In this document: in pieces, positions 1-30,371 of the stretch
How the letters are laid out: each line of letters starts with the position of its first letter
How positions within the stretch are numbered: the first letter of the stretch is position 1
Assembly: GCA_040753815.1 (NCBI GenBank)
Contig: JBFMDU010000021.1
Coordinates: 5,011 to 69,010 of the forward strand
Direction of reading: 5' to 3'
Length of the DNA: 64,000 bases
Source: Chloroflexota bacterium
Lineage (GTDB): Bacteria > Chloroflexota > Dehalococcoidia > GIF9 > JBFMDU01
Program-made: the position numbers and the translations under genes
Notes under the pieces: generated by a model
The model's input: only the letters and a program-made list of their open reading frames with translations
Databases searched by the model: none
Told to the model about the DNA's origin: nothing

Positions 1-1176
1 ACTGGCGAGTGGGCGCGGGAGGTAGTTGCGACATCAAGGAAAGCGGCCGAAGAAGCAGTAGCCGGGGTCGGGGAGGCGGCGGCTTCGGCCCAGCGGTTCG
101 CCACGGAATCAGCCAGACTGACGCGGGAAGCGATAGGCCGTACCGAGGAGATAAGCCAATCGGTGCAGGAGGCATTCGAAGCATCGAAAAAGGCCATCGA
201 AGAGATGATGGTCAAGCTTGAGGAGAGGGCCAGGTTGAGTAAGGAGGCGGCTGAGGCGTTGGTAGCGGTGGCCAACGATGCCGCTGAGTCGGCGATTAAA
301 GTATCTAGGGAGTCTGCCACGGAATCGGCCAGGCTGTCCCGAGAGGCGATAAGTCAGGCGGAAGCGATAAGCAAATCTACCCAGGAGGCGTTCGAGACAT
401 CCAGGGAGACGCTCGAGGAAATGATAGCCGGACTTGATGAAAGAAGCCGGCAAAGCAAGGAGACGGCCGAGGCTCTGGCAAAAGCGGCTGGCGACGCCGC
501 GGAGCTGGCGGTGAAGACCGCCAAAGAGTCCGCTGACATCGCGGCTAAAGCATCTGAGGAGGCCCTGGCCAGGGTCGATGAAGAGACCGACTCGGTCTCC
601 AATGCCCTCGAGGCCTCAGTAGCCGCTGTCAAAAAGGCCGCTGATAAGGCGATTGAAACCCTCAAGGAAACTTCCGCAGAAGCGGCGAAAGTATCTCTGG
701 AGGCAGTCAATCGGGTACAGGAAGAAAGTGAACTGGCTAAGGACAACCTTCAGGCAGCAACAGCGGCGGTACAGAAGGCCGTTGAGGAATCACTGAAAGC
801 GGTGGCCGAGTCATCGGAGACAGCCCAGAGGGCCTCGCGTGAAGCAATCGCCCAGGTTGAAGAAGAAAGCCGGTCGGCCAGAGATGTTGCCAGAGCATCG
901 GCGAAGGCTGCCAGGGAATTTGCTGACACAGCGGGCAAGCGGGCCGGTGACGCAGTGGAAAGAGCGCTCAAGGTCTTTGCAGAAACGCTGGAAGCGGCAG
1001 GTAAGGCTGCCGAAGAAAGGGCTGCCCGAAAATCCCAGGCGCGGGGTGAAGAAGAGCCGGGTCAGGTTATGGAAGACTACCAGGGTAAGATTGCCGAGCG
1101 CCTGCAGGGCCTGGTGAAAATGCATACGACCAGTGCTACTAAAGGGACGGGTGCGAGGAAGAGCACCAGGAAGTGA
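1..1176 (+). CDS. Ala/Glu/Ser/Lys-rich repetitive alpha-helical (coiled-coil-like) protein, 5' end outside window
   Basis: Frame 1 has no stop from base 1 to TGA 1174-1176, so the ORF-track Met at 163 is internal. The translation is low-complexity A/E/K/S with a degenerate 72-aa (216-nt) repeat starting near nt 106 and 322 (ESARL[TS]REAI...QEAFE.S...EEM...ER.R.SKE.AEAL). No catalytic motif recognised. Confidence 0.6.
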   Translation, partial: TGEWAREVVATSRKAAEEAVAGVGEAAASAQRFATESARLTREAIGRTEEISQSVQEAFEASKKAIEEMMVKLEERARLSKEAAEALVAVANDAAESAIKVSRESATESARLSREAISQAEAISKSTQEAFETSRETLEEMIAGLDERSRQSKETAEALAKAAGDAAELAVKTAKESADIAAKASEEALARVDEETDSVSNALEASVAAVKKAADKAIETLKETSAEAAKVSLEAVNRVQEESELAKDNLQAATAAVQKAVEESLKAVAESSETAQRASREAIAQVEEESRSARDVARASAKAAREFADTAGKRAGDAVERALKVFAETLEAAGKAAEERAARKSQARGEEEPGQVMEDYQGKIAERLQGLVKMHTTSATKGTGARKSTRK

Positions 1177-1229: not shown

Positions 1230-2438
1230 CTACAGCAATAGCGGGATGCGCCCGAAGGCCTCTTCGTCGGGTTTGCTATAGCTCGCTTTTCGCTTGCGCC
1301 GGGTCGTATCGCCCGCCATGTAGTCAATTGCCTTGCTGAAGAGCTCGGTGACCCGGCCGACATCGCCCAGTTCGGACAGAATCAGGCTTAGCTCCATGGC
1401 GCGTCCCCGTCTGGGGTAGTCGCCGCCTCTTATAGTGGCTTCCGGAGCCACCCGTTTCAGAGAGCCTCCAAGTTCCTTGAGCAGGGATATGTGCATCGCT
1501 TCCGGCGGCGCTGTTAAAAGATAACACGCTCTGACGGCTTCCTGCGGGTTGCAGTCGAGCGATAGCTCGTCCAGGGCCTCACTTACCAGCCTGACCCCCT
1601 TTTCGACTGTGGCTAACTGGCTGCCGACCGGGTGTTTCTCACCTAACCCCAGCCCGGGAAATAAGGCTCGTCCTCTCTCTCCAAGCAATTTCCGTTCTTT
1701 CCGGTCGGTGCCGCGGCCAACTACCGTCCACCCCGCCAGGCTCTGAATAATATCTCCGGCATCCAGGACCTTACCCCCGATGTTGGCGGGGCTTCTCTCC
1801 TCGCCGGCGCATAGCAGGTTATAAAAAGGGGCGACTACGGTTTCGTTAATCTGGTTCAGAGTATCCTCCGGTGATGCGTTATCCGTAAAGTATCTCTGGT
1901 TGTCAACCAGGAATACCGCATCAGCCGCCAGATAGACAGACTTGAGACAGGCGCTGGCGTTGTAAACGGTCACCGGCTTTTCAATTTCCTCTCTCACGAA
2001 AGGAAGAACAATAAGGTTGTATGCTGGTTTGTTGGGGCAGTGTTCCTTCAAAGACCGTGTTAGCGCCGGAATCAAGCCGGAACCGGTGCCGCCAGCGGCG
2101 GCGGCAATGAGCATGAAGGCATCCATTTCGCCGCTGCGCAGGGTCGGCTCCACGGCTTCGATAACGCGCTCGCTATCTTCTCTTGCAATCTCGGCGGCAA
2201 GTTCGTTGGTCTCTCCCGGCTCGCGGCTGAATACTTCGTTGTAACCGAGAATTATCCTTGGGAGTATCTCGTCCGCGGCAGGTGACAGGCCGTCAAAATC
2301 AGCCGCACTGGTGGTTACGACAAGAGAGTCCGTAACTATTTCTATATGGCGCTCCGCGCGCGCTTTTCTGCCAAGCGCTGCGAAATGCTCGGCAATTCTG
2401 CCGCCGCATAGACCACAGCCTATGACCAGTAGTTTCAC
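1230..2438 (-). CDS. FtsZ/tubulin-superfamily GTPase, divergent (CetZ/FtsZ-like), not a canonical FtsZ
   Basis: 402 aa with a GTG start. Motifs: MKLLVIGCGLCGGRIA (N-terminal G-box), AAGGTGSG signature (nt 2076-2093), NLIVLPFVREE (FtsZ T5/H5-like), VFLVDNQ (cf. FtsZ IVIPND) and KVLDAGDI (T7-like LDxxD). A basic linker ends in the C-terminal peptide EEAFGRIPLLL. Confidence 0.7.
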   Translation of the reverse strand: MKLLVIGCGLCGGRIAEHFAALGRKARAERHIEIVTDSLVVTTSAADFDGLSPAADEILPRIILGYNEVFSREPGETNELAAEIAREDSERVIEAVEPTLRSGEMDAFMLIAAAAGGTGSGLIPALTRSLKEHCPNKPAYNLIVLPFVREEIEKPVTVYNASACLKSVYLAADAVFLVDNQRYFTDNASPEDTLNQINETVVAPFYNLLCAGEERSPANIGGKVLDAGDIIQSLAGWTVVGRGTDRKERKLLGERGRALFPGLGLGEKHPVGSQLATVEKGVRLVSEALDELSLDCNPQEAVRACYLLTAPPEAMHISLLKELGGSLKRVAPEATIRGGDYPRRGRAMELSLILSELGDVGRVTELFSKAIDYMAGDTTRRKRKASYSKPDEEAFGRIPLLL

Positions 2439-2724: not shown

Positions 2725-3546
2725 CTATTGGCGGCTCGTTTTGAGCTTGCCGGTAAGGCGGTACCAGGTTAACAATACCATCCCGCGTACCAGCCGCCAG
2801 CCGCTGATGACCGCGTAGCTCTTGCCCGTAATCTTGCCGGGTCCCCGGGCGGCGGCACGGGCGACCATTTTGCCTACCGCTTCCGCCGGGACCCCCAGCG
2901 CCTTAAAGACGTACTCAGTGCTTTTCGGTTGTCCCTCGGGCCGACCGGTCTTATAAAAGTCGGTCCGCACCATGCCGGGTGAGATGACATGTATCGAGAC
3001 CGGGTGCCTGCGGTTTTCCTTGGCGAGGCTCCGCGTCAGGCTGACGACCGCCGACTTGGTCGAGGCGTAGGTGGCCATCATCGGGCTGGCGTCGCCTTTG
3101 CCGCCCTTGCCGCTCATGTTGAAGAGAGTCCCGCCCCCTTGCTTGATAAAGTAGGGGATGACCATGCGGCAGGCTTTGAGCAGTCCGGCATAGTTGATGG
3201 CGATGATGCGGTCGATTTCCGGCTCGCTCAGCGCCGGCAGTGGCCGAAAGCCTCCGGAAACCCCGGCGTTGTTGACCCAGATGTCTACTTTGCCCCACGT
3301 CTGAACAGCGTGCTGGAGCAGGGAATCGAGGTCTCTGGAGACCGAAACGTCACAACGGATACCGGACGCGGCTAGCCCCTGGTCATTGAGTTCGGCTACG
3401 GCTTTGACGACATCGGCTTCACTGCGCGAGCAGATGACGACCCTGGCGCCGTCTCTAGCCAGAGCTTCGGCAATGGCCCGGCCGATGCCCTTGGTCGAGC
3501 CGGTGACGACGGCGGTCTTGCTTTCCAGTGGCCTTGTACTACTCAT
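2725..3546 (-). CDS. Short-chain dehydrogenase/reductase (SDR) family oxidoreductase
   Basis: Motifs TGSTKGIGRAIA (TGxxxGIG), NNAG and YASTKSAV (YxxxK). I moved the start to ATG 3546, which has GGGAG 9 nt upstream. The ORF-track start at 3582 has no SD, so the alternative span is 2725-3582. Confidence 0.85.
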   Translation of the reverse strand: MSSTRPLESKTAVVTGSTKGIGRAIAEALARDGARVVICSRSEADVVKAVAELNDQGLAASGIRCDVSVSRDLDSLLQHAVQTWGKVDIWVNNAGVSGGFRPLPALSEPEIDRIIAINYAGLLKACRMVIPYFIKQGGGTLFNMSGKGGKGDASPMMATYASTKSAVVSLTRSLAKENRRHPVSIHVISPGMVRTDFYKTGRPEGQPKSTEYVFKALGVPAEAVGKMVARAAARGPGKITGKSYAVISGWRLVRGMVLLTWYRLTGKLKTSRQ

Positions 3547-3605
3547 GCTGGTCTTCTCCCTGATGGTAGCCGTAAGTGTCATTTCGAAAGGAGCGCTTTT
3601 TCTTA

Positions 3606-4953: not shown

Positions 4954-5697
4954 CTAAAACAGCTCTTTAATGTTACGCATTTGATCCTTACCCGCATTTA
5001 GCCTTTCGTCTTTGGCTACGTCATAATCATCAAATAAGCGGTCATACGTGACTATTTGTAGGCGCGGGTTCTGCGTGCAGATCTCTATTCGCCGACGATT
5101 GTCTGCGGAAGACATTGTTGCACGTCTACCTATGACTATAAAATAGTTGCATGGTCTCCGCAAAGAGCCATCTCTCTCGTAATCGCTCGAAAAGAATCCC
5201 AGTGCTGTAAGGCTATCTTCAGCTAACTTTGCTAGTTCAATTGATGCATACTGCGAATGATCCGTCATCCAAGATTGCCAGTCCAGAACTTGGCGTATTG
5301 AGTGCGTTAGTTTTTCAGTAGGATCACCTGCTTTTGTAAAAAGCAGTACATCCGCCCTTTCTATTTCAACGAAGGTCCACCACAAGCCCATGGAGTTCGC
5401 GTTACAAAAAGCAAAATCAACTTCATATTCTGCTCCTAGTGCCACTTTTGAATATAGTGCGGAACGAGTTGAGGCAGCTGGATAAAAACCGTCCAGCATC
5501 GCGTGCAACAATAACACCGGATGCCTCTCCAAAAATGCCTGAATTAGTGCTTCTTTCGGTTTAGCCTCTATCAAGTTTTTGAATGTTTGCCTGTCTTTTC
5601 CATATTTCTTCAATAGCAGGTTCGTACGCCCAACAGGATATGATTCATTGTCAACTCTTATGGCTAACTTTCTTAGGAGATCAACTTTCTTCTGCAT
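4954..5697 (-). CDS. DUF4263 / Shedu (SduA)-like PD-(D/E)xK nuclease-fold protein candidate
   Basis: 247 aa in a low-GC stretch. EALIQAFLERHPVLL ... YEVDFAF ... WTFVEIERADVLLFTK ... LTHSIRQVLDWQSW matches my memory of the DUF4263 pattern (E..lq.FLe.nPwll ... pDf ... vEiK ... Qv..Y..w). Confidence 0.55.
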   Translation of the reverse strand: MQKKVDLLRKLAIRVDNESYPVGRTNLLLKKYGKDRQTFKNLIEAKPKEALIQAFLERHPVLLLHAMLDGFYPAASTRSALYSKVALGAEYEVDFAFCNANSMGLWWTFVEIERADVLLFTKAGDPTEKLTHSIRQVLDWQSWMTDHSQYASIELAKLAEDSLTALGFFSSDYERDGSLRRPCNYFIVIGRRATMSSADNRRRIEICTQNPRLQIVTYDRLFDDYDVAKDERLNAGKDQMRNIKELF

Positions 5698-7225: not shown

Positions 7226-7301
7226 TGGTGGGCGGTACAGGACTTGGACCTGTGACCTCCTGTGTGTAAGACAGGCGCTCTAACCGCTGAGCTAACCGCC
7301 C
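7226..7301 (-). tRNA. tRNA-Val (anticodon TAC)
   Basis: The reverse complement folds as a 76-nt cloverleaf: acceptor GGGCGGT/ACCGCCC, D arm GCTC/GAGC, anticodon stem CCTGT/ACAGG with loop CTTACAC, T arm ACAGG-TCCAAGT-CCTGT, and an encoded CCA. Confidence 0.9.
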
Positions 7302-9391: not shown

Positions 9392-12300
9392 TTAATTCTT
9401 ATTCCCTCTAAGGTAGCTAATCATCGGACCAGTCACCAGCGGCACTACATCACCAATCATATGCGGCATCAGGTTGTCCATGACTTTTGGCATAAGCTCC
9501 GGCATCTGCTCCGCCATATAGTCCGGCATCGGTATCGCCGCCTTGACGCGCTCCAGCATTGTCGGCATGACCCTGGGCATCATCATCGGCAGGAGCCTCG
9601 GGAAGAGCACCGGGAACATCGGCTTCATGAGATTCAAAATGCCAGGCACCTTGCCCATGGCCCGCATCATGGGCCCCATCTTGAACGGCATGGCGTCAAT
9701 AAGCTCCGGCCACATCGTGCCCATCAGTTTAGCGAAGCCCTGGGGCGTCATCAGCGCAATCATCGCCTCGAACACCGCCCATTGCCGCTGGACCTCGGGG
9801 TTCGGGTCGGGGAAGTCATGACCGAGCGCCTGGCAGGCGAACCTCGCCAGATCAACAACCTCGACCGGTGCATTCTTCTTTTTGGCGCTGACTCTTAGCT
9901 GGAACTCACAGCACGGGCAGAGCGCCAGCACCTTCTGTGCGCCGGCTTCGACCGCTTCGTCAAGCCTTACCTTGCCGATATCAGCCGCTACCGGCGGCTC
10001 CTTGATCAGGGTCAACACACTGCCGCAGCAGTGGGCATTATCGTGGTGGTAGGCCATCTCGGCGAACTTGATACCGGGCACCGCTTTGATGACATCCCGG
10101 GGCGGCTCATAGACGCCGGATACCCGCCCGATATGGCAGGAGTCATGCCATGTCACCGTCTGCGGTTTCTGTCCCCGGTCCGGAAACTTGAACTCGCCTT
10201 TCTTGAGCTTCTCCGATACGACCTCGCTGTAGTGCCTGGTGGTGATAGCGTAGTCGATGCCGAGCTTTTCGGCCCATTGCGGATATACCTGCCGCCACAT
10301 CATATCGCAGGCGGGGCAGGAGGTGATGACAGTATCGGCGCCGGCGGCTTTGACCGCGGCGATATTGCTCTTCATCACCTCGGCGAAAAGGTCCCATTTG
10401 CCGGATACCAGCATCGGTGTGCCGCAACAGCTCTCCTTCTGGCCAAGATACGAAAAGTCCACCCCGGCGGCGTCAAGCAGGCGCACGCTGGCCATGCCGA
10501 TATCGTGCTCGACATAGCTGGCAGTGCACCCGGCAAAGTAGACTGCCTTGGACTTATGCGCCGGGCCGTGCTTCTCTTTGAGGTCGGCCGGGAACCAGGC
10601 GTCGCGGTCTTTGCGATAACCTGCCCAGATATTGCCCTGGCTCTTAAGGGCCGCGGTCATCATTTCAAACGGCGGGAAAGTCATCTTCTTTTGTTCACCG
10701 ATAAGCTGGCCACGGAGTTTCATCCACGACGACTCAATTGGTAGTGAGGCCGAACAGCGCAGGTTGCACAGCTCGCAGGTGGTGCAGGAAAGGATGGTGT
10801 CCACCATCTTCTGGTCCCACTTCTGCCGGCCCTCCATGTATTCCCTCAGCCAGTACCACTTGCCGCGCGGCGACTGGCTTTCCCAGCCGCGGCCGTAGAA
10901 CTGGTCACATTCTTCAACACAGTAGCCGCACTGGGAGCAGGCATAGGCGTACCAGGCTACGTCTGCTGGTATGTTACGGACGGCTCTGGTAGGGCGTTCG
11001 CCGACCTTGAGGATAACGCGGTTAGCCAGCGCCCGGACGACCGGTTCGAAAGTCTGAGCAATGCTTAAGATACCGCCAATCGCCCCGTTCTTGAGAACCT
11101 TGCCCGGATTAAGAATACCTTTTCGGTCAGTCCGGGCTTTGAACTCTTTGAGCCGCTTTAAGCGGTCAGCGCCGAGTACACTGGCCGCCTTGCTGGCGAA
11201 ATAAAGACCGGTGGAGTACTCACGGCCGCCGTTTCTCTCGGCGATGTCCGAAATCGTCAGCGCCAGGCTGAAGACGAAGTTGTAGTTGAACCGCCGCTGG
11301 TCGCTCGGTATGAAGCCGAGGAGCACCACTTCAGGCTTGCCGCCGGCGCCGTTGCGGATGACGATGGCTTCTTTGACAATAGGCTGGGCCACTTTTTCGT
11401 TGATTTCGTCCATGGTTGCGCCCAGCGATGAAAGCGGCACCACCACCTCAGCCGGCACCAGGCTCGGCCCCAGACGCTTTACCACCATAATCTTGAACCG
11501 TTCGTCCCATTCGTGCCTGGCGATGCGGTCGCTGAGCATCTCGGCCCGGTTGGCCTTAGTCAGCTCTGGCAGTTGGCTCATTATGACGCCGCGGTCTTTC
11601 TTTCGGTAAGCCAGCGTCATGATGTAGGCCGCCGGCAGGAGCAATTTCTCATGTCCGTTATGACCGTGAGCTTCCGAAGGGGCAACCTTGTTCTTAAGCT
11701 CGGCCATGCGCGGGTTGATAAAGACCAGCGACCAGATGGGTAGTTTTTCATCAATGATGGCCTGGACAAGTTTCTGAAGGTCATGCGGGTTGGGGCAACC
11801 TACCGCCGCCACTTCGATATCCTCAAGCGCCTGCACGCGGACGGTTACTTCGCTTATAAGGCCGGTGATGCCTTCGGCTTCTGAAATAAGCTCCAAATCC
11901 TTGCCACTGAAGTCTTTAACCGAGCCATCAGGCAGGACTACTTTAGCGCTTATCACGTTATCGCGGAACCAGCCGGCCTCGTATGAGCCGATGCCGGCGC
12001 CGCCCTGGGCCAGCCAGCCGCCGGCCGTAGAAGCCGGAGCGCTGGTGGGATAGAGGCGCAGGGTGAAACCGTGCCTGGCCAGCTCCATATCGAGCTTCTC
12101 CCAGACCACACCCGCCTGCACGGTAACCGTCTGCCTCGCTTTATCAACGGTGATAACTTTATCCATCCGGCGGAAATCAACGACGACGCCTTTCTTCACC
12201 GGTATGACGCCGCCGTAGCCGGATGATGCTTTGCCGCGGGGTGTGAGAGGAATACCTTTTTCGGAAGCCCAGCGTACCAGCTTGACCAGTTCCTCGGTGG

Positions 12301-12472
12301 TTTCTGGCTGGATGACGGCTTCCGGCGTAGTGTTGCCGATAAACGGCTTGACCAGCCCGGGAATGGCGGCAATATCGTGCCCGTAGAGTACCCGCTCTGT
12401 CTCACGGAAGCACGCCCGGCCGCCGAACTCCTTCTCCAGATAGCTCCTTTGCTTTGACGTCACTTTGGCCAT
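9392..12472 (-). CDS. Fused FAD-linked oxidase (GlcD/D-lactate dehydrogenase-like) and Fe-S/CCG-domain oxidoreductase (GlcF/HdrD-like) with Met/Pro-rich tail
   Basis: An N-terminal PCMH-type FAD-binding region is followed by ferredoxin motifs CSQCGYCVEEC and CTTCELCNLRC. Two CCG-type Cys-rich domains follow (FAGCTASY...CCGTP; WHDSCHIGR...CCGS). I moved the start to ATG 12472 (GGAGAGAGG upstream), which removes the overlap with the ArsR gene. Confidence 0.85.
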   Translation of the reverse strand: MAKVTSKQRSYLEKEFGGRACFRETERVLYGHDIAAIPGLVKPFIGNTTPEAVIQPETTEELVKLVRWASEKGIPLTPRGKASSGYGGVIPVKKGVVVDFRRMDKVITVDKARQTVTVQAGVVWEKLDMELARHGFTLRLYPTSAPASTAGGWLAQGGAGIGSYEAGWFRDNVISAKVVLPDGSVKDFSGKDLELISEAEGITGLISEVTVRVQALEDIEVAAVGCPNPHDLQKLVQAIIDEKLPIWSLVFINPRMAELKNKVAPSEAHGHNGHEKLLLPAAYIMTLAYRKKDRGVIMSQLPELTKANRAEMLSDRIARHEWDERFKIMVVKRLGPSLVPAEVVVPLSSLGATMDEINEKVAQPIVKEAIVIRNGAGGKPEVVLLGFIPSDQRRFNYNFVFSLALTISDIAERNGGREYSTGLYFASKAASVLGADRLKRLKEFKARTDRKGILNPGKVLKNGAIGGILSIAQTFEPVVRALANRVILKVGERPTRAVRNIPADVAWYAYACSQCGYCVEECDQFYGRGWESQSPRGKWYWLREYMEGRQKWDQKMVDTILSCTTCELCNLRCSASLPIESSWMKLRGQLIGEQKKMTFPPFEMMTAALKSQGNIWAGYRKDRDAWFPADLKEKHGPAHKSKAVYFAGCTASYVEHDIGMASVRLLDAAGVDFSYLGQKESCCGTPMLVSGKWDLFAEVMKSNIAAVKAAGADTVITSCPACDMMWRQVYPQWAEKLGIDYAITTRHYSEVVSEKLKKGEFKFPDRGQKPQTVTWHDSCHIGRVSGVYEPPRDVIKAVPGIKFAEMAYHHDNAHCCGSVLTLIKEPPVAADIGKVRLDEAVEAGAQKVLALCPCCEFQLRVSAKKKNAPVEVVDLARFACQALGHDFPDPNPEVQRQWAVFEAMIALMTPQGFAKLMGTMWPELIDAMPFKMGPMMRAMGKVPGILNLMKPMFPVLFPRLLPMMMPRVMPTMLERVKAAIPMPDYMAEQMPELMPKVMDNLMPHMIGDVVPLVTGPMISYLRGNKN

Positions 12473-12503
12473 GCCTCTCTCCTTAGTTGTTATCCGTTGC
12501 AGG

Positions 12504-12869
12504 TCATTTGCCAGCGCGCTTTCCCCGGCCGCCAAGTGAGTTTAGCGACCGCGCCAGCTCCTTCTTAGCTCCTAACTGCGTTTCCAGCATGTCCCGAACC
12601 AGGTCGCAGGCCTGACTGATTTTGAGGCTGGACAGGCTGTAATAAATAGTGGTGCCGGCGCGGCGCGCCTGGACGATATCTCGCTCACGCAGGACAGCCA
12701 GGTGGCGCGACACGTTGCTCTGGGGCAGGTCAAGCCTCTTAACTATCTGTCCCACCGACATCTCTCCATCCCTCAGTTCGTGGAGAATCATCAGCCGGTT
12801 AGGGTCGGCCATGGTCTTGCATATATCTGCCTGGAGTTTGAATAGCGCTACGGCCCGTTTATCAGCCAT
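12504..12869 (-). CDS. ArsR/SmtB-family transcriptional regulator
   Basis: Winged-HTH pattern: ICKTMADPNRLMILHELRDGEMSVGQIVKRLDLPQSNVSRHLAVLRERDIV. Confidence 0.85.
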   Translation of the reverse strand: MADKRAVALFKLQADICKTMADPNRLMILHELRDGEMSVGQIVKRLDLPQSNVSRHLAVLRERDIVQARRAGTTIYYSLSSLKISQACDLVRDMLETQLGAKKELARSLNSLGGRGKRAGK

Positions 12870-15821: not shown

Positions 15822-16766
15822 CTACTGGTACAGGTTCCCTGCTAGCCAGTACCGCTTCCGCTCCCGATCAGTAGCTATAACTTGAAGCCCAAGCGGCTTG
15901 ATAACTTCGTCCAGGTACTTCGTCAGACCTACCCGTGATAGCGTCGCTCCGATTCTCTCCCTCTTCTTTCCATTGCTTGCGTACCATTCAGTAGTTTTTC
16001 TAACGAGCTCCGGGACTTTGTCATCGCCAACGAAAATGGCGACCTCATAAGCCATGAGCGGATGCTTACCATGTTTACCGCCAACCCTCACGAGGTGACC
16101 TTTCCGTTTCTCCTGCCATGCCGATGACGGACATACTTTAATGCAGTCCCCGCAGTAGATACACTTCTCAGGGATGTGCCGCGGAAATCCGTCGTCGTCT
16201 TTGACTATCGCCCCATCTTCACAGGCTAGAATGCACGCTCCGCACTGGTCGCACAGTTCTCGGTCCCATACTGGCTCCACAACCCCCTGAAAACCGAGGT
16301 CCATTTCTCTGGTCCTGGCGCAGTCAATCGGACAACCGGAGAATGACACCTTGAACTTGTGGGGACATTGTGTCCCGAAAAAGAGCCGGTCAACCTCCAG
16401 GCTCATCTTAACCGTATCGGTAATACCGTTAGGATTGTAGTCACAGCCGCCGCAGGCGGTTGGGACACGGACTCTCGGCCCGCAGGACGCTATGCCCAGA
16501 CCGGCTTCGCCCAACTCCTTGCGGACACTGTCGATGACCGCCCGGTCGACATGAAGTATCTCCAGAGACTGCCGTACCGTAGTATGCAGGAGACCTGTGC
16601 CGTACCTCTCAGCTACCTCGGCCACTTTCCTCAGCTTCTCGGAAGTTATTCGCCCGGCCGGCACCCGTATCCTCAGGGTAAAAAGGTCGTCCTGCCTTTC
16701 TTTGATAAAGCCGCCTGATTTAAGCTCATTAATGTCAAGGGATGTCTTTTCTGCTGTATCTGTCAT
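15822..16766 (-). CDS. Small sulfite/nitrite-reductase-family protein with ferredoxin insert (AsrC/DsrAB-like)
   Basis: Siroheme/4Fe-4S-type Cys clusters are present (SCGPRVRVPTACGGC; SGCPIDCAR). An inserted 2x[4Fe-4S] ferredoxin motif follows (CDQCGACILAC ... CIYCGDCIKVCP). Confidence 0.65.
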   Translation of the reverse strand: MTDTAEKTSLDINELKSGGFIKERQDDLFTLRIRVPAGRITSEKLRKVAEVAERYGTGLLHTTVRQSLEILHVDRAVIDSVRKELGEAGLGIASCGPRVRVPTACGGCDYNPNGITDTVKMSLEVDRLFFGTQCPHKFKVSFSGCPIDCARTREMDLGFQGVVEPVWDRELCDQCGACILACEDGAIVKDDDGFPRHIPEKCIYCGDCIKVCPSSAWQEKRKGHLVRVGGKHGKHPLMAYEVAIFVGDDKVPELVRKTTEWYASNGKKRERIGATLSRVGLTKYLDEVIKPLGLQVIATDRERKRYWLAGNLYQ

Positions 16767-25354: not shown

Positions 25355-27061
25355 CTAGCGGTTGCCCAGCCATTTCTTGCGTGACTTGGCGACTTCCTTC
25401 TGCATCTTTTTAGTCTTCTGATTAATGACATCCGGATGGGACTCGTTGAGGAACTTGTCCACAAGGAACGGATGCCCCGGTGATGCCAGCCCGTTAGGGT
25501 CGAACTCTTTCTTGAACCGCTCCAGCCAGATACCGTAGTTTTGAGTTGTTTTGGCAATCTCACCAACCGGTTGTACCTGGCCGTCGAAGAAGCTCAGGGC
25601 TCCGGTCTCCATGGAAAGCTGAAGGCCGGTGTTGTAACGCCATTCCAGGTAGTGTTTGGCGTTGCCGGCGTCGTATTCGGGAGCGGTCGGGTCGATCTTC
25701 GGGCCATAGGGCCAGACCTGAAGCTCGCTGTAGTAAATCCGGCCGAATTCGACCGAAAGGTACCACGGATACTCGTTCTTCTGATGCAGGAAGTCATTGG
25801 GGTACTCCTGCTGGTACTGGTATGTCCGCTCACGGTAAAGGTCATCACATTTCTCAATGCATCGCGGGCTTTCCATGATGCCATTACATTCACCAAAGAC
25901 CTGGGTGGCCTTCCACATGCCCTGCGAGTTGGCAGCGAAAAAGACCGTCTCGTCAACCTGCCGCGACCGGAGCAGTGTGCCCTGGTTCTCCTTGATTATG
26001 TCCATGAGCACTCGCTCCTCGTACTGGAGCTGTTTCAGAGAAGTGTAACCGACGAGCAGGACACGGAGCATGCGGCTTCGGGCAACGTCCTCCTCGGTTG
26101 TCTTATTCCAGCCATCCCAGAAGGTGTTGACATAAGCGCGGTCACCGCGGGCGCGAGCGACATCACGCCAATATGCCGGAACGCGGTTGACACAGGCGCC
26201 GATGCGGGCCTTGGCCATTTCTCTTATTGCCTTGCGCACCGTCGGCTCGTTCGGGAAACTGACGGTGTAGAACTGGACCCTCGGTGGCAGTTTGACGCAG
26301 GCATCGCCGCCCATGCCGGTCGGCTCCAGTTTCTCCGTCTGGAAGGGGTAGAGCTTGTAGGAGATGCGAGTAACGATGCCCATGCTCCCAGCCCAGCTCG
26401 AAAGTCCTTTGAGGAAACCGGTGACATTGGGGCCGGGGCTGTCCTGCCAGAACCAGTTGTCATCACCAGAAGCCAGCGATCCCAGACGATATACATCACC
26501 CTCGGGCGTCACCCACTCGACGCCGTTGAGGCGGCGGCCGCTCAGGATGGTGATGCGGTAGTTATAGATGCTCATGCCGCAGAGGAAAGCATTCACCAAC
26601 GCTGAGACCTGCCCCCCACCTCCCGGCACCAGACTGCACAGGTCGCGCTTCAGTATTTCACCCTGGAGTTGGGCGTAAACCACGCCGGGCTCGAGGATGA
26701 CGTACATGTTCTTATCATCCACAATCATCTTGTCCATGCGCTTCTGGTCGATATAAACGACGTCGTCGCGCGCGTAGGCGCTGGAGAAGGCCATACCGTA
26801 GGTGCTAACCGGGATGAACGGTATCTTCCACCGGTTACAGGTCTTGACCAGGCGTACAACCTCATCCACCGCCTTGGGCATGAAGATGGCCGCCGGCATA
26901 CGGCAATCGCCCTGGAACCAGTAGACCTGGCGGTCGAAGCCGCGGCCAACATAGGCCAGTCGTGCGGCCTTATTGGCTGTAGCATGCTCGGGGCCGACAA
27001 TAGCCTCAAGCTCGCGGTATGCCTGCTCGGGTATATGGTCGAAAACATTAGGGCCGTTCAT
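25355..27061 (-). CDS. FAD-binding (PCMH-type) oxidoreductase, large subunit-like
   Basis: 568 aa with an FAD-binding-4-like N-terminal half. It is the last gene of a three-gene minus-strand cluster with an Fe-S/CCG protein and a GlcD-like protein. Confidence 0.7.
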   Translation of the reverse strand: MNGPNVFDHIPEQAYRELEAIVGPEHATANKAARLAYVGRGFDRQVYWFQGDCRMPAAIFMPKAVDEVVRLVKTCNRWKIPFIPVSTYGMAFSSAYARDDVVYIDQKRMDKMIVDDKNMYVILEPGVVYAQLQGEILKRDLCSLVPGGGGQVSALVNAFLCGMSIYNYRITILSGRRLNGVEWVTPEGDVYRLGSLASGDDNWFWQDSPGPNVTGFLKGLSSWAGSMGIVTRISYKLYPFQTEKLEPTGMGGDACVKLPPRVQFYTVSFPNEPTVRKAIREMAKARIGACVNRVPAYWRDVARARGDRAYVNTFWDGWNKTTEEDVARSRMLRVLLVGYTSLKQLQYEERVLMDIIKENQGTLLRSRQVDETVFFAANSQGMWKATQVFGECNGIMESPRCIEKCDDLYRERTYQYQQEYPNDFLHQKNEYPWYLSVEFGRIYYSELQVWPYGPKIDPTAPEYDAGNAKHYLEWRYNTGLQLSMETGALSFFDGQVQPVGEIAKTTQNYGIWLERFKKEFDPNGLASPGHPFLVDKFLNESHPDVINQKTKKMQKEVAKSRKKWLGNR

Positions 27062-27077
27062 TTCAGTCCTCCTGGTT

Positions 27078-28376
27078 CTACTTGCCGATAGCTCTGGCCA
27101 TGACTTCAGTGATGTCGAAGACTTTCATGCCGTCTTTCTTGGCGTCGTTGAAGTTGCCCCGGCAGTAGGGGCAGGCGGTAACGATAGCCTCAGCGCCAAC
27201 GTGAGCGGCCTCGGCCAGTCTCTCGGCGGCGGTTGAGATGGCAACATCGGGGAAGGCTTCCTTCACGCCGCCATCGGCGCCACAGCAATAGCCGTTATCG
27301 TGGTGTCGGACCATTTCTACAAGCTGTACGCCGGGGATAGCCTTGAGGATATCCCGGGGTGGCTCGTAGACGCCGTGAACGCCGCGGCGGACGAACTCGC
27401 GTGGCGGCACAAAAGCCCCGAACTTATTCTCGCGGATACCTTCCCACTTTACCCACTTCTCACCCTTCCGTCCGAGATTGCACGGGTCATGGTAGGTCAG
27501 CCGCATATCGAACCGCTTATTAAATTTAAGCCGTCCTTCTTTAACCCAGGGTGCGGCAAGCTCGGTAATGTGTACCGGCTCGAAGCCGAGGTCTTCGGTC
27601 GAAAAGCCGAGTAGTTTGGGATAGTCAACCTTGATCGTCTTATACCCTTCGGCACAGGAGAAGACAACCTTTTTAGCACCAGTTTTACGTATGGCATCGA
27701 GATTAGCCTTAGCCAGCTTCTTCGCTTTTTCCACCTGGCCGGTTATGAAGACGAGGTGACCACAGCATTGCTCGTCCTTCATTACCATATACTTCTCGCC
27801 GGCGGCGGCAATGATGCGGGCGGTCGCTTTGGCGATACCGGTATCGACGAGCGATGCACGGCAACCGACGAAGTAAAGGATATCGGCTCTGGAGGCAGGT
27901 CTGGCATCGGCCGGCACCCAGTCGAGCCGCCTCGTCTGGCTCTTGCCATAGCGGTTGCCGGTCTTCTCAATATTCTGAGTAATCTCAACATGCGCCGGCA
28001 TCGGCCCATAGCCCTTCTCCACCATCCGGGCGCGTAGGGACTCAAGCATCAGTTCGATTTCCAGGTCGAGGCACCGCTTGCAGGCGGCATCGCACCGGCC
28101 GCAGAGTGGGTCGCGGTAGACGATATCGCGCAGTCCCTCGTCGGCATAGTCGAGCTTACCCATCAACAGGTAGTAGACGATATTGCACTTGCCGGCCGCT
28201 CCGTAGGCATCGAAGCCCTGGTTTTTCCAGGCGGGACAGCCCCAGCTAAAGTCAACGCCCTGGACGTAGTTGTACTCAATCCAGCGGCAGGGGGTCTGGC
28301 CGTCGCAATGGCGCGCCTCGAAGTAGTAATCGTCGAGGTTCAGTCCCAGGCTTAGCTTTCTCGGTTTTCCAGCCAT
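27078..28376 (-). CDS. (Fe-S)-binding protein with two CCG Cys-rich domains (GlcF/HdrD-like)
   Basis: CGRCDAACKRC cluster motif. CCG domains: YFVGCRASL...CCGH and YHDPCNLGR...CCGADGG. Confidence 0.8.
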   Translation of the reverse strand: MAGKPRKLSLGLNLDDYYFEARHCDGQTPCRWIEYNYVQGVDFSWGCPAWKNQGFDAYGAAGKCNIVYYLLMGKLDYADEGLRDIVYRDPLCGRCDAACKRCLDLEIELMLESLRARMVEKGYGPMPAHVEITQNIEKTGNRYGKSQTRRLDWVPADARPASRADILYFVGCRASLVDTGIAKATARIIAAAGEKYMVMKDEQCCGHLVFITGQVEKAKKLAKANLDAIRKTGAKKVVFSCAEGYKTIKVDYPKLLGFSTEDLGFEPVHITELAAPWVKEGRLKFNKRFDMRLTYHDPCNLGRKGEKWVKWEGIRENKFGAFVPPREFVRRGVHGVYEPPRDILKAIPGVQLVEMVRHHDNGYCCGADGGVKEAFPDVAISTAAERLAEAAHVGAEAIVTACPYCRGNFNDAKKDGMKVFDITEVMARAIGK

Positions 28377-28420
28377 ATCATGTAACCTCCATCAAGGATG
28401 AATTGCCGACTGACCAGACA

Positions 28421-29893
28421 CTAGAAACACAGGTTGCCGGGATTGAGAATGCCGTTAGGGTCGTAGTGCTTCTTAAAACGCTTCAGCAGTTCGGCGTAGT
28501 TGCCGTATTTGGCGTAGACCGTGCTGGCGACGAGCGGGTACGGCCGGTTGAAGTAGGCGCCCTGTTTCAGGACTGCCGAGGCCGCTTCGAGGTACATCTC
28601 ACGGATGCGGTCCTTTTCCTGCTCATCAGCCGGGTTGTAATAGAACATGAAGTCGACCTGACAGGCGCGGCCGTCTTCTACCGGCTGGATGTAGACGCCC
28701 ATATCACTGGCGGCGTAGCCGAAGCGGTTAGCTATTTCTTTTACCGGCGCCATAAAGCTGCCGGCTTTTTCCATAGTGGTCATGAACATGAGTTCTTGGC
28801 AGGCGCCCTTCGGGGCATGTTTCCAGTAGGTCCTATTCTCTGGCCATGGCTTGCGGAGCATTTCAGGGAGCTTCCGCTCGAGCCCGCCAGCGCCGGGGAG
28901 GGCGGTTAGCGAATCGAGGTTGGTGAAGTACTGGGCCATGATTTCACGCAGAGCCTCTTCCTCGTAGGCCAGCTTCTCCTCGGGGTGGCGTTTGAGTGCC
29001 CGGCAGACCAGGACGACCGTCCAGGCCGGCAGCGAAACCTTGAGTTTAGAGAAATCGCCCGGCCACTTTTCGGCAAGGATGGTGGCTAGCGTGACGTTGT
29101 TGACCAGGAAGCATTCATAGCCGATACCACGGCGTATCAGCTTGTACATCGGCTCGACGGCTTTCTCGATGCTTGGGGCAGGGATGAAGAAAGCCTTGCT
29201 CATTACTGGCAGGTCCTCAATGTAGGTCACTGCCCAGGTGACGACGCCGATGGTCCCCTGGGCGCCGTAGAGGAAGGTGTCCCAGCTCATCGGGCCAGGG
29301 CCGGAGGCGAGGACACCGTCGGAGAGGACGCCCGGGGCGCGGAAGTTATCAACGCCGGCCGAGCCGGAAACGAACAGCTCGCCGTTGCCCCAGACCATCT
29401 GCAGGCTCCGCAGAGGGCCGGCGAACTCATGGCTATGAATGGCCGGCGGCTCGTACTCAAGCGAGTCTATTATGGCCGAGCGTGAGGCCGGGGGCAAGAG
29501 TGGGATGACGCTCATAAAACCCTTGATCTCAAGCGCTTTCTGGAGCTGTCCCCAGGTCACGCCGACCTGGATATTAGCCGTATTTGATTCGGGGACGATA
29601 TCGGTAATGCGGTTCATTCTGGAGCAGTCAAGGATGACGCCGCCGGCTTTTGGAACAGCGCCGCCATGGAAGTGAACACCCGATGTCTGCGGCACGATGG
29701 CAAACTTCATCTTGTTAGCCAGTTGCACAACCGCGGCTGTTTCCTCGGGGGTCTTGGGCCGGACAACGCAGGTGCAGGCGCCGGGCTTGACCAGGCTGTT
29801 GTCCTTTACGTAGCGGTTCAGGACCTTGGGGGAAGTGAGGACATTGGCTTTGCCGACTATCCCTGCCAGCTTTTCGGTGAGATTCATGACCAA
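28421..29893 (-). CDS. FAD-linked oxidase (GlcD/GlcE-like)
   Basis: 490 aa with a PCMH FAD-binding domain. The C-terminal ...HYDPNGILNPGN is typical of the FAD-linked oxidase C-terminal domain. Confidence 0.8.
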   Translation of the reverse strand: MVMNLTEKLAGIVGKANVLTSPKVLNRYVKDNSLVKPGACTCVVRPKTPEETAAVVQLANKMKFAIVPQTSGVHFHGGAVPKAGGVILDCSRMNRITDIVPESNTANIQVGVTWGQLQKALEIKGFMSVIPLLPPASRSAIIDSLEYEPPAIHSHEFAGPLRSLQMVWGNGELFVSGSAGVDNFRAPGVLSDGVLASGPGPMSWDTFLYGAQGTIGVVTWAVTYIEDLPVMSKAFFIPAPSIEKAVEPMYKLIRRGIGYECFLVNNVTLATILAEKWPGDFSKLKVSLPAWTVVLVCRALKRHPEEKLAYEEEALREIMAQYFTNLDSLTALPGAGGLERKLPEMLRKPWPENRTYWKHAPKGACQELMFMTTMEKAGSFMAPVKEIANRFGYAASDMGVYIQPVEDGRACQVDFMFYYNPADEQEKDRIREMYLEAASAVLKQGAYFNRPYPLVASTVYAKYGNYAELLKRFKKHYDPNGILNPGNLCF

Positions 29894-30204: not shown

Positions 30205-30291
<87 letters not shown>

Positions 30292-30294
30292 CGC

Positions 30295-30371
30295 GCGCCT
30301 GTGGCCCAGTGGATTAGGGCGCAGCCCTGCGGAGGCTGATGTCGTGGGTTCGAATCCCACCAGGCGCGCCA
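30295..30371 (+). tRNA. tRNA-Arg (anticodon GCG)
   Basis: Acceptor GCGCCTG/CAGGCGC. D arm GCCC/GGGC. Anticodon stem CAGCC/GGCTG with loop CTGCGGA. T arm GTGGG-TTCGAAT-CCCAC. CCA is encoded. It starts 3 nt after tRNA-Leu. Confidence 0.85.

Follow-up and report, generated by a model that had tools for sequence, protein, structure and literature searches.

A CetZ-like gene labelled as ftsZ in a Chloroflexota genome and its coiled-coil neighbour: a probable second filament system in Dehalococcoidia

Introduction

What kind of tubulin-superfamily protein is encoded at positions 1230..2438 on the minus strand of a 64,000-nt stretch of a Chloroflexota genome (assembly GCA_040753815.1, contig JBFMDU010000021.1, positions 5,011 to 69,010), and is it a division protein? 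This whole stretch is called the window here. The public entry for the exact protein is titled 'MAG: cell division protein FtsZ [Chloroflexota bacterium]', and NCBI and JGI annotate many of its homologues, too, as 'cell division protein FtsZ'. A first-pass annotation, made by eye from the letters of the window, had read the gene differently, as a tubulin/FtsZ-superfamily GTPase of CetZ or tubulin flavour lying outside any division cluster. In the current study, we compared the protein with known families by profile, sequence and predicted fold, and examined the surroundings of its relatives. The gene product is a CetZ-like protein from a bacterium, a GTPase of the tubulin/FtsZ superfamily that belongs to a Dehalococcoidia clade, and it probably forms a second filament system with a coiled-coil partner.

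Santana-Molina et al. 2023 (PMC9871819) have already mentioned CetZ-like proteins of Dehalococcoidia briefly; they named the Dehalococcoidia-dominated group 'CetZ-like' and found it to be paraphyletic and to match CetZ_C. Elsewhere, the CetZ literature still treats the family as archaea-specific (PMC9856176, PMC11621097), and the boundary of the canonical CetZ clade has been placed at the CetZs of Thermococcales (Brown and Duggin 2023). Our search of the literature found no paper studying bacterial CetZ-like proteins.

Results

The intact open reading frame (ORF) at 1230..2438 (-) begins with GTG and encodes 402 aa, the stop codon being included in the coordinates. Two Pfam models match its product above their gathering scores. 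PF00091 Tubulin covers the N-terminal GTPase domain (residues 3-183, 1890..2432 (-); 75 bits, 1.2e-20), in line with the superfamily assignment that had been made by eye, and PF21011 CetZ_C covers a CetZ-type C-terminal domain (residues 191-372, 1323..1868 (-); 50.8 bits vs. a cut-off of 21.6, 1.7e-13). Among the Pfam models, FtsZ_C does not match the protein and Tubulin_2, the TubZ-type model, reaches 12.6 bits, below its cut-off of 27. None of the NCBIfam models matches, and thus the FtsZ equivalog (TIGR00065) does not match. The presence of CetZ_C together with the lack of FtsZ_C and NCBIfam FtsZ matches agrees with the earlier suggestion of a CetZ/tubulin flavour rather than a canonical FtsZ. 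When all PDB sequences were searched with phmmer, the best match was CetZ1 of Haloferax volcanii (4b46; 1.8e-34, residues 1-374), and CetZ2 (3e-18) and Methanosaeta CetZ (1e-9) ranked well above tubulins (~1e-5), TubZ (4xcq, 1e-4), BtubB (2e-4) and true FtsZ (0.011). A tblastn search with H. volcanii CetZ1 hit the gene (2e-30; 380 aa aligned, 31% identical), and one with E. coli FtsZ gave nothing there even at E<10. The sole matches in an annotated plasmid collection were haloarchaeal 'tubulin/FtsZ family' genes (25-30% identity over >90% of the length), none of its bacterial plasmids giving a match, and phages yielded only a partial match to the TubZ of phage c-st (4e-4).

The predicted structure points the same way. 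A first AlphaFold2 model, built on 51 sequences, had an unusable C-terminal domain, with a predicted local distance difference test score (pLDDT) of 58.7; a second model, built on 118 sequences, reached a pLDDT of 77.4 and a predicted template-modelling score (pTM) of 0.82. Its N-terminal GTPase domain lies mostly above pLDDT 85, and only the M-loop (248-269, pLDDT <50) and the linker plus tail (378-402) are disordered or of low confidence. In a Foldseek comparison with the PDB, the best folds were CetZ2 (4b45) and CetZ1 (4b46), with a target-normalised TM score of 0.88 and a root-mean-square deviation of 3.2-3.3 Å, and FtsZ structures scored 0.67-0.79. The public label 'cell division protein FtsZ' misnames a CetZ-like protein.

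Each landmark motif that had been listed by eye was located in the translated ORF, all on the minus strand: the G-box VIGCGLCGGRIA, which contains T1 GCGLCGG (2391-2426); T4 AAGGTGSG (2076-2099, with its GGTGSG core exactly at 2076-2093); T5 NLIVLPF (1998-2018); the VFLVDNQ block (1896-1916); the T7 or synergy loop KVLDAGDI (1749-1772); the basic linker TTRRKRKAS (1281-1307), within a disordered stretch at 1233..1316; and the terminal peptide EEAFGRIPLLL (1233-1265). Family alignments add a degenerate T3 loop, SREPGETNELA (residues 71-81, 2196..2228 (-)), and a long M-loop with a hydrophobic tip, ..RALFPGLGLG.. (residues 244-270, 1629..1709 (-)), whose ..ALFPGL.. aligns with the M-loop tip of CetZ1 (GLLSRL). 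Across 118 family members, positions that are invariant or at least 90% conserved include G7, G9 and G12 of T1; G116, T118, G119, S120 and G121 of T4; N141, L145, P146, D179 and N180; D226 and D229 of T7, both invariant; and E392, F395, I398, P399, L401 and L402 of the tail. The nucleotide-binding loops T1, T4, T5 and T6 and both acidic residues of T7 are intact in the window protein. Its D229 aligns with E218 of CetZ1, which is reportedly the catalytic T7 residue, mutation of which blocks GTPase activity. The tail, which had been compared by eye with the anchor-binding peptide of FtsZ, proved to be conserved throughout the family, with E-E-A-F-x-D-I-P-S-L-L almost invariant. DIPAFL of E. coli FtsZ pairs with the family's DIPSLL in a MAFFT alignment, and because of this likeness to the FtsZ C-terminal peptide, binding of the tail by FtsA or SepF is conceivable. 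In CetZ1, rods no longer form when either the terminal peptide LESLF or the M-loop tip LLSRL is mutated (bioRxiv 10.1101/2024.04.08.588506).

The window protein and its closest relatives form a subclade with a changed nucleotide-binding site. Where the window protein has SREPGETNELA as its T3, the other family members have GHGVGKINELG, CetZ1 has GHGVGADNELG and FtsZ has GLGAGANPEVG; close relatives of the window protein carry NRNRG or SYADG in this loop, and G71, H72, G73 and V74, each at least 90% conserved in the 118 members, are altered in the subclade. T2 is TTS in the subclade vs. NTD in the family, so that N42 and D44 are altered, and CetZ1 itself is without the T2 aspartate (NSA). An 11-residue insertion in the M-loop is also specific to the subclade. 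Gamma-phosphate sensing is probably altered in these proteins, to judge from the loops. Against its orthologues, the window gene shows a dN/dS of just 0.14-0.17, indicating purifying selection, and this argues that the protein is functional.

The host of the gene is a bacterium. The window is a bacterial chromosome segment with thrS, pheS, pheT, dxr, ispG, rseP, a PAS histidine kinase gene and other genes; its proS is of the bacterial type with an editing domain, and its PheS is 65-94% identical to homologues of which the named ones come from Dehalococcoidia or Chloroflexi. Since the host is bacterial and CetZ is described as archaea-specific, we file the protein as 'CetZ-like, bacterial clade', not as a canonical CetZ. 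Scoring covered more than 3,400 homologues. Tubulin plus CetZ_C is present in every one of the best 120, and homologues with an organism name come from Dehalococcoidia, frequently as two paralogs per genome. A scan of one genome per species gave at least 375 confirmed loci; 79 loci were kept, from Dehalococcoidia, Dehalococcoidales, unclassified Chloroflexota metagenome-assembled genomes and one 'bacterium', with several genomes giving two loci. A HMMER search of 1.84 billion cluster representatives returned 365 clusters at E<=0.001, the named ones being Dehalococcoidia at 34-40% identity and Nitrososphaerales archaea near 30%. No archaeal donor could be named among the cluster representatives, few of which carry organism names. 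In a rough neighbour-joining tree, FtsZ of E. coli and one FtsZ of Dehalococcoidia fell outside the CetZ-type sequences, the Dehalococcoidia-type sequences (tails ..IP[S/L/T]LL) formed a single clade, and acidic archaeal sequences grouped with CetZ1 and CetZ2 (tails ..EPLF/..SLF) in a separate one. The bacterial clade stands beside the archaeal CetZ clade, not within it, in this tree without support values, which agrees with Santana-Molina et al. 2023 (PMC9871819).

Convergent with the window gene lies the 3' part (391 aa) of a coiled-coil gene, which is cut by the left window edge (1..1176 (+)) and ends in the GKIAERLQGLVKMH family motif. Two related loci, L080 and L081, hold orthologues of the CetZ-like gene (77% and 87%) together with full-length orthologues of the coiled-coil protein (748 aa in L080, 731-757 aa in L081), and the window copy would measure ~730-760 aa in full. 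It is composed of Ala/Glu-rich helical repeats, with only a sub-threshold Pfam match to Phasin_2. To survey the neighbourhood, ORFs were called in 81 related loci and the window and clustered by BLASTP, giving 112 CetZ-like genes. These fetched loci contain a coiled-coil family of 62 genes of 500-800 aa (Ala 22%, Glu 17%, Lys 9%, Ser 9%) with no Pfam domain, and 59 of them, the window copy included, are convergent with a CetZ-like gene and within two genes of it. The flanks vary widely, with 26 families upstream of the pair and 27 beyond the partner, and because the far-side genes belong to so many families, the pairing is not merely inherited synteny. Class-wide coupling of the CetZ-like gene to a long, cytoplasmic coiled-coil protein of 25-residue repeats, usually with a small helical protein as well, is new here.

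Among 60 coiled-coil proteins, lag 25 was one of the three strongest autocorrelation lags in 51, and the dominant hydropathy period was 3.57 residues, which equals 25/7. This periodicity is in keeping with an extended coiled coil that is almost straight. In 60 of the 62 proteins, neither a signal peptide nor a transmembrane segment was found. The repeats are followed by a conserved motif, K-I-E-x-R-L-[D/E]-x-L-[A/T]-[K/R]-M-[Y/F], and then by a charged tail; most members have an acidic one, the window clade a basic one. A homologue search with the full coiled-coil protein returned only four spurious histidine kinases, the index probably being swamped by low-complexity words. Two members are outliers in which a C-terminal transmembrane helix replaces the motif (L043, 1727-3667 (-); L051, 6902-8566 (+)). 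The membrane-anchored gene of L043 stands directly upstream of ftsA-ftsZ in the same orientation, which hints at a link to the divisome.

The small helical family comprises 42 genes whose all-helical products have ~130-190 aa (e.g., L078, 6992-7516 (-)) and share the blocks ..AYAAYxEAQRQVAxAYK.. and ..ETIEQAWxIFxK. It has no Pfam match, and its PDB matches are only designed helical bundles, which are compositional. A search with a profile hidden Markov model of the small protein did not find it fused to the coiled-coil protein. At least 37 times, its gene sits between the coiled-coil gene and a CetZ-like gene that we call CetZ-A; the window clade and several further lineages lack it. The typical order in Dehalococcoidales is ligA, pth, SLOG, eno, gap and CetZ-A (forward), the small helical and coiled-coil genes (both reverse), and then a second CetZ-like gene, CetZ-B (forward), followed by dnaX, ybaB and recR. 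Of the 112 CetZ-like genes, 29 are CetZ-B genes that stand immediately upstream of dnaX-ybaB-recR and share its orientation (e.g., L078, 10001-13948, and L029, L060 and L075). A rough neighbour-joining tree grouped these dnaX-linked CetZ-B sequences and set them off from most A-type sequences linked to coiled-coil genes. The window gene is a long-branch A-type that abuts its coiled-coil gene directly.

No ftsA, ftsZ or second tubulin homologue was found within the 64-kb window, and neither ftsA nor mraZ nor mraW lies near the CetZ-like gene in the window, L080 or L081; the reading of the gene as standing outside a division cluster thus stands. In two other loci, L017 and L043, a canonical ftsA-ftsZ pair lies <10 kb from a CetZ-like gene. 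The FtsZ of L017 is 47% identical to E. coli FtsZ and has T4 GGGTGTG and the C-terminus ..LAVPAFLRQRR. Similarly, mraZ-mraW-ftsA-ftsZ occurs in Dehalococcoides mccartyi and in all examined high-quality genomes of Dehalococcoidales and SAR202 (PMC10608941). In D. mccartyi, DET0342/0343 are ftsA and ftsZ, and two more genes, DET0589 and DET0636, are called 'FtsZ' (PMC5102406). DET0589 adjoins gap (DET0590), with enolase at DET0593 (PMC3986231), an arrangement that is the synteny of the A-type CetZ-like genes in our loci. A second element of this kind had been proposed for the window as a non-division one. The coexistence of ftsA-ftsZ pairs in related contigs supports a second element at the level of the lineage, and the non-division role is what we infer for it. 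Proteomics of D. mccartyi BTF08 quantified a 'FtsZ/Tubulin GTPase' (btf_0551), 'FtsZ' (btf_0595) and btf_0548, a hypothetical protein whose gene is close to that of the tubulin, all of which were commoner in disc-shaped cells of the pure culture than in barrel-shaped cells of the co-culture (PMC8163811). These data fit a role in shape or a role in division alike.

Upstream of the CetZ-like gene, a 286-nt spacer separates its start from the stop of an SDR gene (2725-3582 (-), Pfam) and holds a tandem array of 3.3-4 copies of a 71-nt unit (2447-2704, no strand assigned). Each unit contains a 15-bp near-palindrome, AACAYCAWTGRTGTT, and a GC-rich stem-loop, CGAAAGGG-loop-CCCTTTCG; on the plus strand it reads TTGAAA-N15-(C/T)ATAAT, followed by a hairpin and TTTT. 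L080 and L081 have 2-2.5 diverged copies, the best conserved being the one nearest the start codon, and the motif occurs neither elsewhere in the window nor in 79 more distant loci. The spacer folds somewhat better than its shuffles (z = -3.1). Rfam gave no match in it at E<=1, a sigma-70 promoter scan of it gave nothing, and one hairpin was flagged as terminator-like at a level not above chance. The array is lineage-specific and lies outside the family-wide module; it possibly consists of repeated operator sites. The SDR, NMT1-like and CN-hydrolase genes further upstream are likewise common only to the window, L080 and L081. Hence the neighbours named by the first-pass annotation (SDR gene, repeat array and coiled-coil gene) are all present, and of the co-conservation that it raised, the class-wide part holds for the coiled-coil gene, the array and the SDR gene being confined to the closest relatives.

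The window has other features besides. At 4954-5697 (-), in a dip in GC content to 0.51, lies a gene whose 247-aa product has a nuclease domain of the Shedu type (SduA_C, 4.9e-16). It separates the NMT1-like gene from the CN-hydrolase gene, two genes that adjoin each other in L080 and L081, and has the look of a small inserted defence gene. Two sets of FAD_binding_4, CCG (HdrD-like) and Fe-S genes (9392-12535 (-) and 25355-29893 (-)) resemble modules of glycolate or lactate oxidase and heterodisulfide reductase, ordinary metabolism for an anaerobe, and a dissimilatory-type NIR_SIR gene occurs at 15822-16766. Genes for tRNA-Leu(CAG) and tRNA-Arg(GCG) lie 3 nt apart at 30205-30371 (+), and one for tRNA-Val(TAC) lies at 7226-7301 (-).

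Discussion

In the current study, we characterized a gene labelled as ftsZ whose product most likely belongs to a second filament system, distinct from FtsZ and acting with a coiled-coil partner. The way in which such a system might work can be sketched from homology and gene linkage. Like archaeal CetZ1, the CetZ-like protein would bind GTP and assemble head-to-tail into dynamic protofilaments, in which T7 of one subunit would complete the active site of the next, and the M-loop tip and C-terminal peptide could mediate lateral or partner contacts. The coiled-coil protein might scaffold the filaments or anchor them beneath the membrane, and the two together could make up, alongside FtsA/FtsZ, a cytoskeletal system organising the shape of the cell or its envelope. 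In the window subclade, the nucleotide switch is probably altered, with slower or uncoupled hydrolysis, because T3, the loop that senses the gamma-phosphate, is without its glycines. The family may have come from archaea by horizontal transfer, or it may share an old common ancestor with CetZ.

Might the gene still be the ordinary division ftsZ of this genome, merely divergent? The labels given by NCBI and JGI to the exact protein and to many homologues would say so, as would the resemblance of ..DIPSLL/..RIPLLL to an anchor-binding peptide (DIPAFL in E. coli, AVPAFL in the FtsZ of Dehalococcoidia), and no canonical ftsZ lies in the 64 kb of the source genome that were covered. However, the product matches neither NCBIfam FtsZ nor FtsZ_C nor E. 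coli FtsZ at E<10. Its T4 is GGTGSG, not GGGTGTG, CetZ structures are its best matches by sequence and by fold, and there is no ftsA, mraZ or mraW in its gene context; in addition, true ftsA-ftsZ genes coexist with CetZ-like genes in related genomes and in D. mccartyi. We therefore regard a divergent ordinary FtsZ as highly improbable. Still further from the data is a partition tubulin of the TubZ/PhuZ type from a plasmid or phage, or a misbinned archaeal contig. Chromosomal housekeeping genes surround the gene, synteny is stable in L080 and L081 and across the class, no bacterial plasmid matches, and Tubulin_2 stays at 12.6 bits vs. a cut-off of 27, against which can be set the weak TubZ similarity (4xcq, 1e-4; phage c-st, 4e-4) and a Shedu-type defence gene 2.5 kb away. 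The bacterial methylerythritol phosphate-pathway and aminoacyl-tRNA synthetase genes of the window and the Dehalococcoidia matches of its PheS speak against an archaeal contig, and we give these origins next to no weight. Canonical FtsZ, TubZ or plasmid partition, and archaeal contamination were accordingly rejected on profiles, fold and gene context.

Two further explanations accept the CetZ-like identity and differ on function. By one, which we think unlikely, the window subclade consists of GTPase-impaired pseudo-enzymes serving as static structural or regulatory subunits. Its long branch, the change of T3 from GHGVG to SREPG, with variation of this loop in the closest relatives, and the change of T2 from NTD to TTS would all be expected of such a subunit, but T1, T4, T5, T6 and both acidic T7 residues are intact, a dN/dS of 0.14-0.17 is maintained, the partner gene and tail are retained, and CetZ1 also lacks the T2 aspartate. 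By the other, to which we give a slightly lower chance, the protein is a division-associated paralog that co-assembles with FtsZ at the septum or assists it, as archaeal FtsZ1 and FtsZ2 cooperate. Apart from two loci of chance proximity, A-type genes never adjoin ftsA/ftsZ, and their dedicated partner, a coiled-coil protein, is no known part of the divisome. Archaeal CetZ1 is reportedly dispensable for division and governs shape. Two papers on CetZ1 describe a role in shape and motility only (PMC11621097, bioRxiv 10.1101/2024.04.08.588506). On the other side, the abundance of the BTF08 protein drops together with that of FtsZ in abnormally shaped co-culture cells, the FtsZ-like tail could be bound by FtsA, and L043 has, directly upstream of ftsA-ftsZ, a coiled-coil family member with a transmembrane anchor.

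Several points weigh against a second filament system as we propose it. The polymerisation, GTPase activity, localisation and partner interaction of the bacterial members are all properties that we infer, and the T3 and T2 changes mean that the window copy may hydrolyse GTP poorly or not at all. The loci were selected for the CetZ-like gene, so that linkage was measured from one side only, and the partner gene is convergent, not co-transcribed. Both trees were made by neighbour-joining without support values. Just 64 kb of the source genome were covered, and no canonical ftsZ lies within them. Finally, the changes in BTF08 track FtsZ too, which leaves room for a division-related role.

Keeping this in mind, a wider proposal can be put forward as tentative, to which we would not give even odds. 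Dehalococcoidia may possess an undescribed module made of one or two CetZ-like paralogs, a 25/7 coiled coil of 75-110 nm and a helical adaptor, in which the tail would dock on the coil and a membrane-proximal lattice would set cell shape, such as the disc of Dehalococcoides, independently of FtsA/FtsZ. It would be the bacterial counterpart of the CetZ system, probably exchanged between the domains. Dehalococcoidales and SAR202 are reported to be without the peptidoglycan-synthesis (dcw) genes. The S-layer of D. mccartyi is archaeal-like, and the archaellum has been exchanged between the domains in Chloroflexota. The family would be a further case on this growing list of archaeal cell-surface and cytoskeletal systems in Chloroflexota. 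It is of interest in its own right, since CetZ is called archaea-specific in its own literature, yet a probable sister clade occurs throughout a major class of bacteria, the cultured members of which, Dehalococcoides, lack peptidoglycan and have an S-layer and a disc shape of unexplained origin. The annotation as 'FtsZ' conceals this family and inflates apparent ftsZ copy numbers. The coiled-coil and small helical proteins are testable candidates for scaffolding a tubulin-like filament in a bacterium, and the invariant tail peptide is a testable interaction site. What is added here beyond the literature is the class-wide coupling, the A/B paralogy, the invariant tail peptide and the degenerate T3 loop of the window subclade.

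Among known systems, archaeal CetZ (4B46, 4B45, 3ZID) has in common with the window protein the two-domain fold and CetZ_C, the tubulin-like T4 GGTGSG, an extended M-loop whose tip is hydrophobic, and a disordered tail with a short, conserved hydrophobic peptide at its end. Most of the bacterial family also has the T3 motif of CetZ1, GHGVGxxNELG, which the window subclade lacks. Identity to archaeal CetZ is only ~30%, the host of the window protein is a bacterium, and the tails differ (..DIPSLL/..RIPLLL in the bacterial family vs. ..LESLF/..EPLF in archaeal CetZ). We inspected two haloarchaeal cetZ loci and found a coiled-coil partner in neither; in one of them the convergent neighbour is a polytopic membrane protein. 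Published analyses of archaeal cetZ neighbourhoods report no such partner. With bacterial FtsZ, the window protein shares the superfamily, the logic of the GTPase domain and a superficially similar C-terminal peptide (DIPxxL); FtsZ has T4 GGGTGTG and an ftsA/dcw context, whereas the window protein has GGTGSG and neither that context nor matches to FtsZ profiles. TubZ, PhuZ, BtubA/B and FtsZl1/FtsZl2 are likewise non-canonical prokaryotic members of the tubulin superfamily. Similarity to TubZ and BtubB is far weaker than to CetZ, and the window gene is without plasmid or phage context; membership in FtsZl1/FtsZl2 is unlikely because the CetZ match is strong and full-length. The CetZ-like group of Dehalococcoidia (PMC9871819; DET0589/DET0636, btf_0551) is the same family as the window protein. 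Compared with the bulk of that group, the window protein falls in a basal long-branch subclade at ~50% identity with the 11-residue M-loop insertion and a changed T3, and its locus has no small helical gene between the pair and carries the lineage-specific 71-nt array upstream. It is thus a new, divergent member of a family that has been noted in the literature and never studied.

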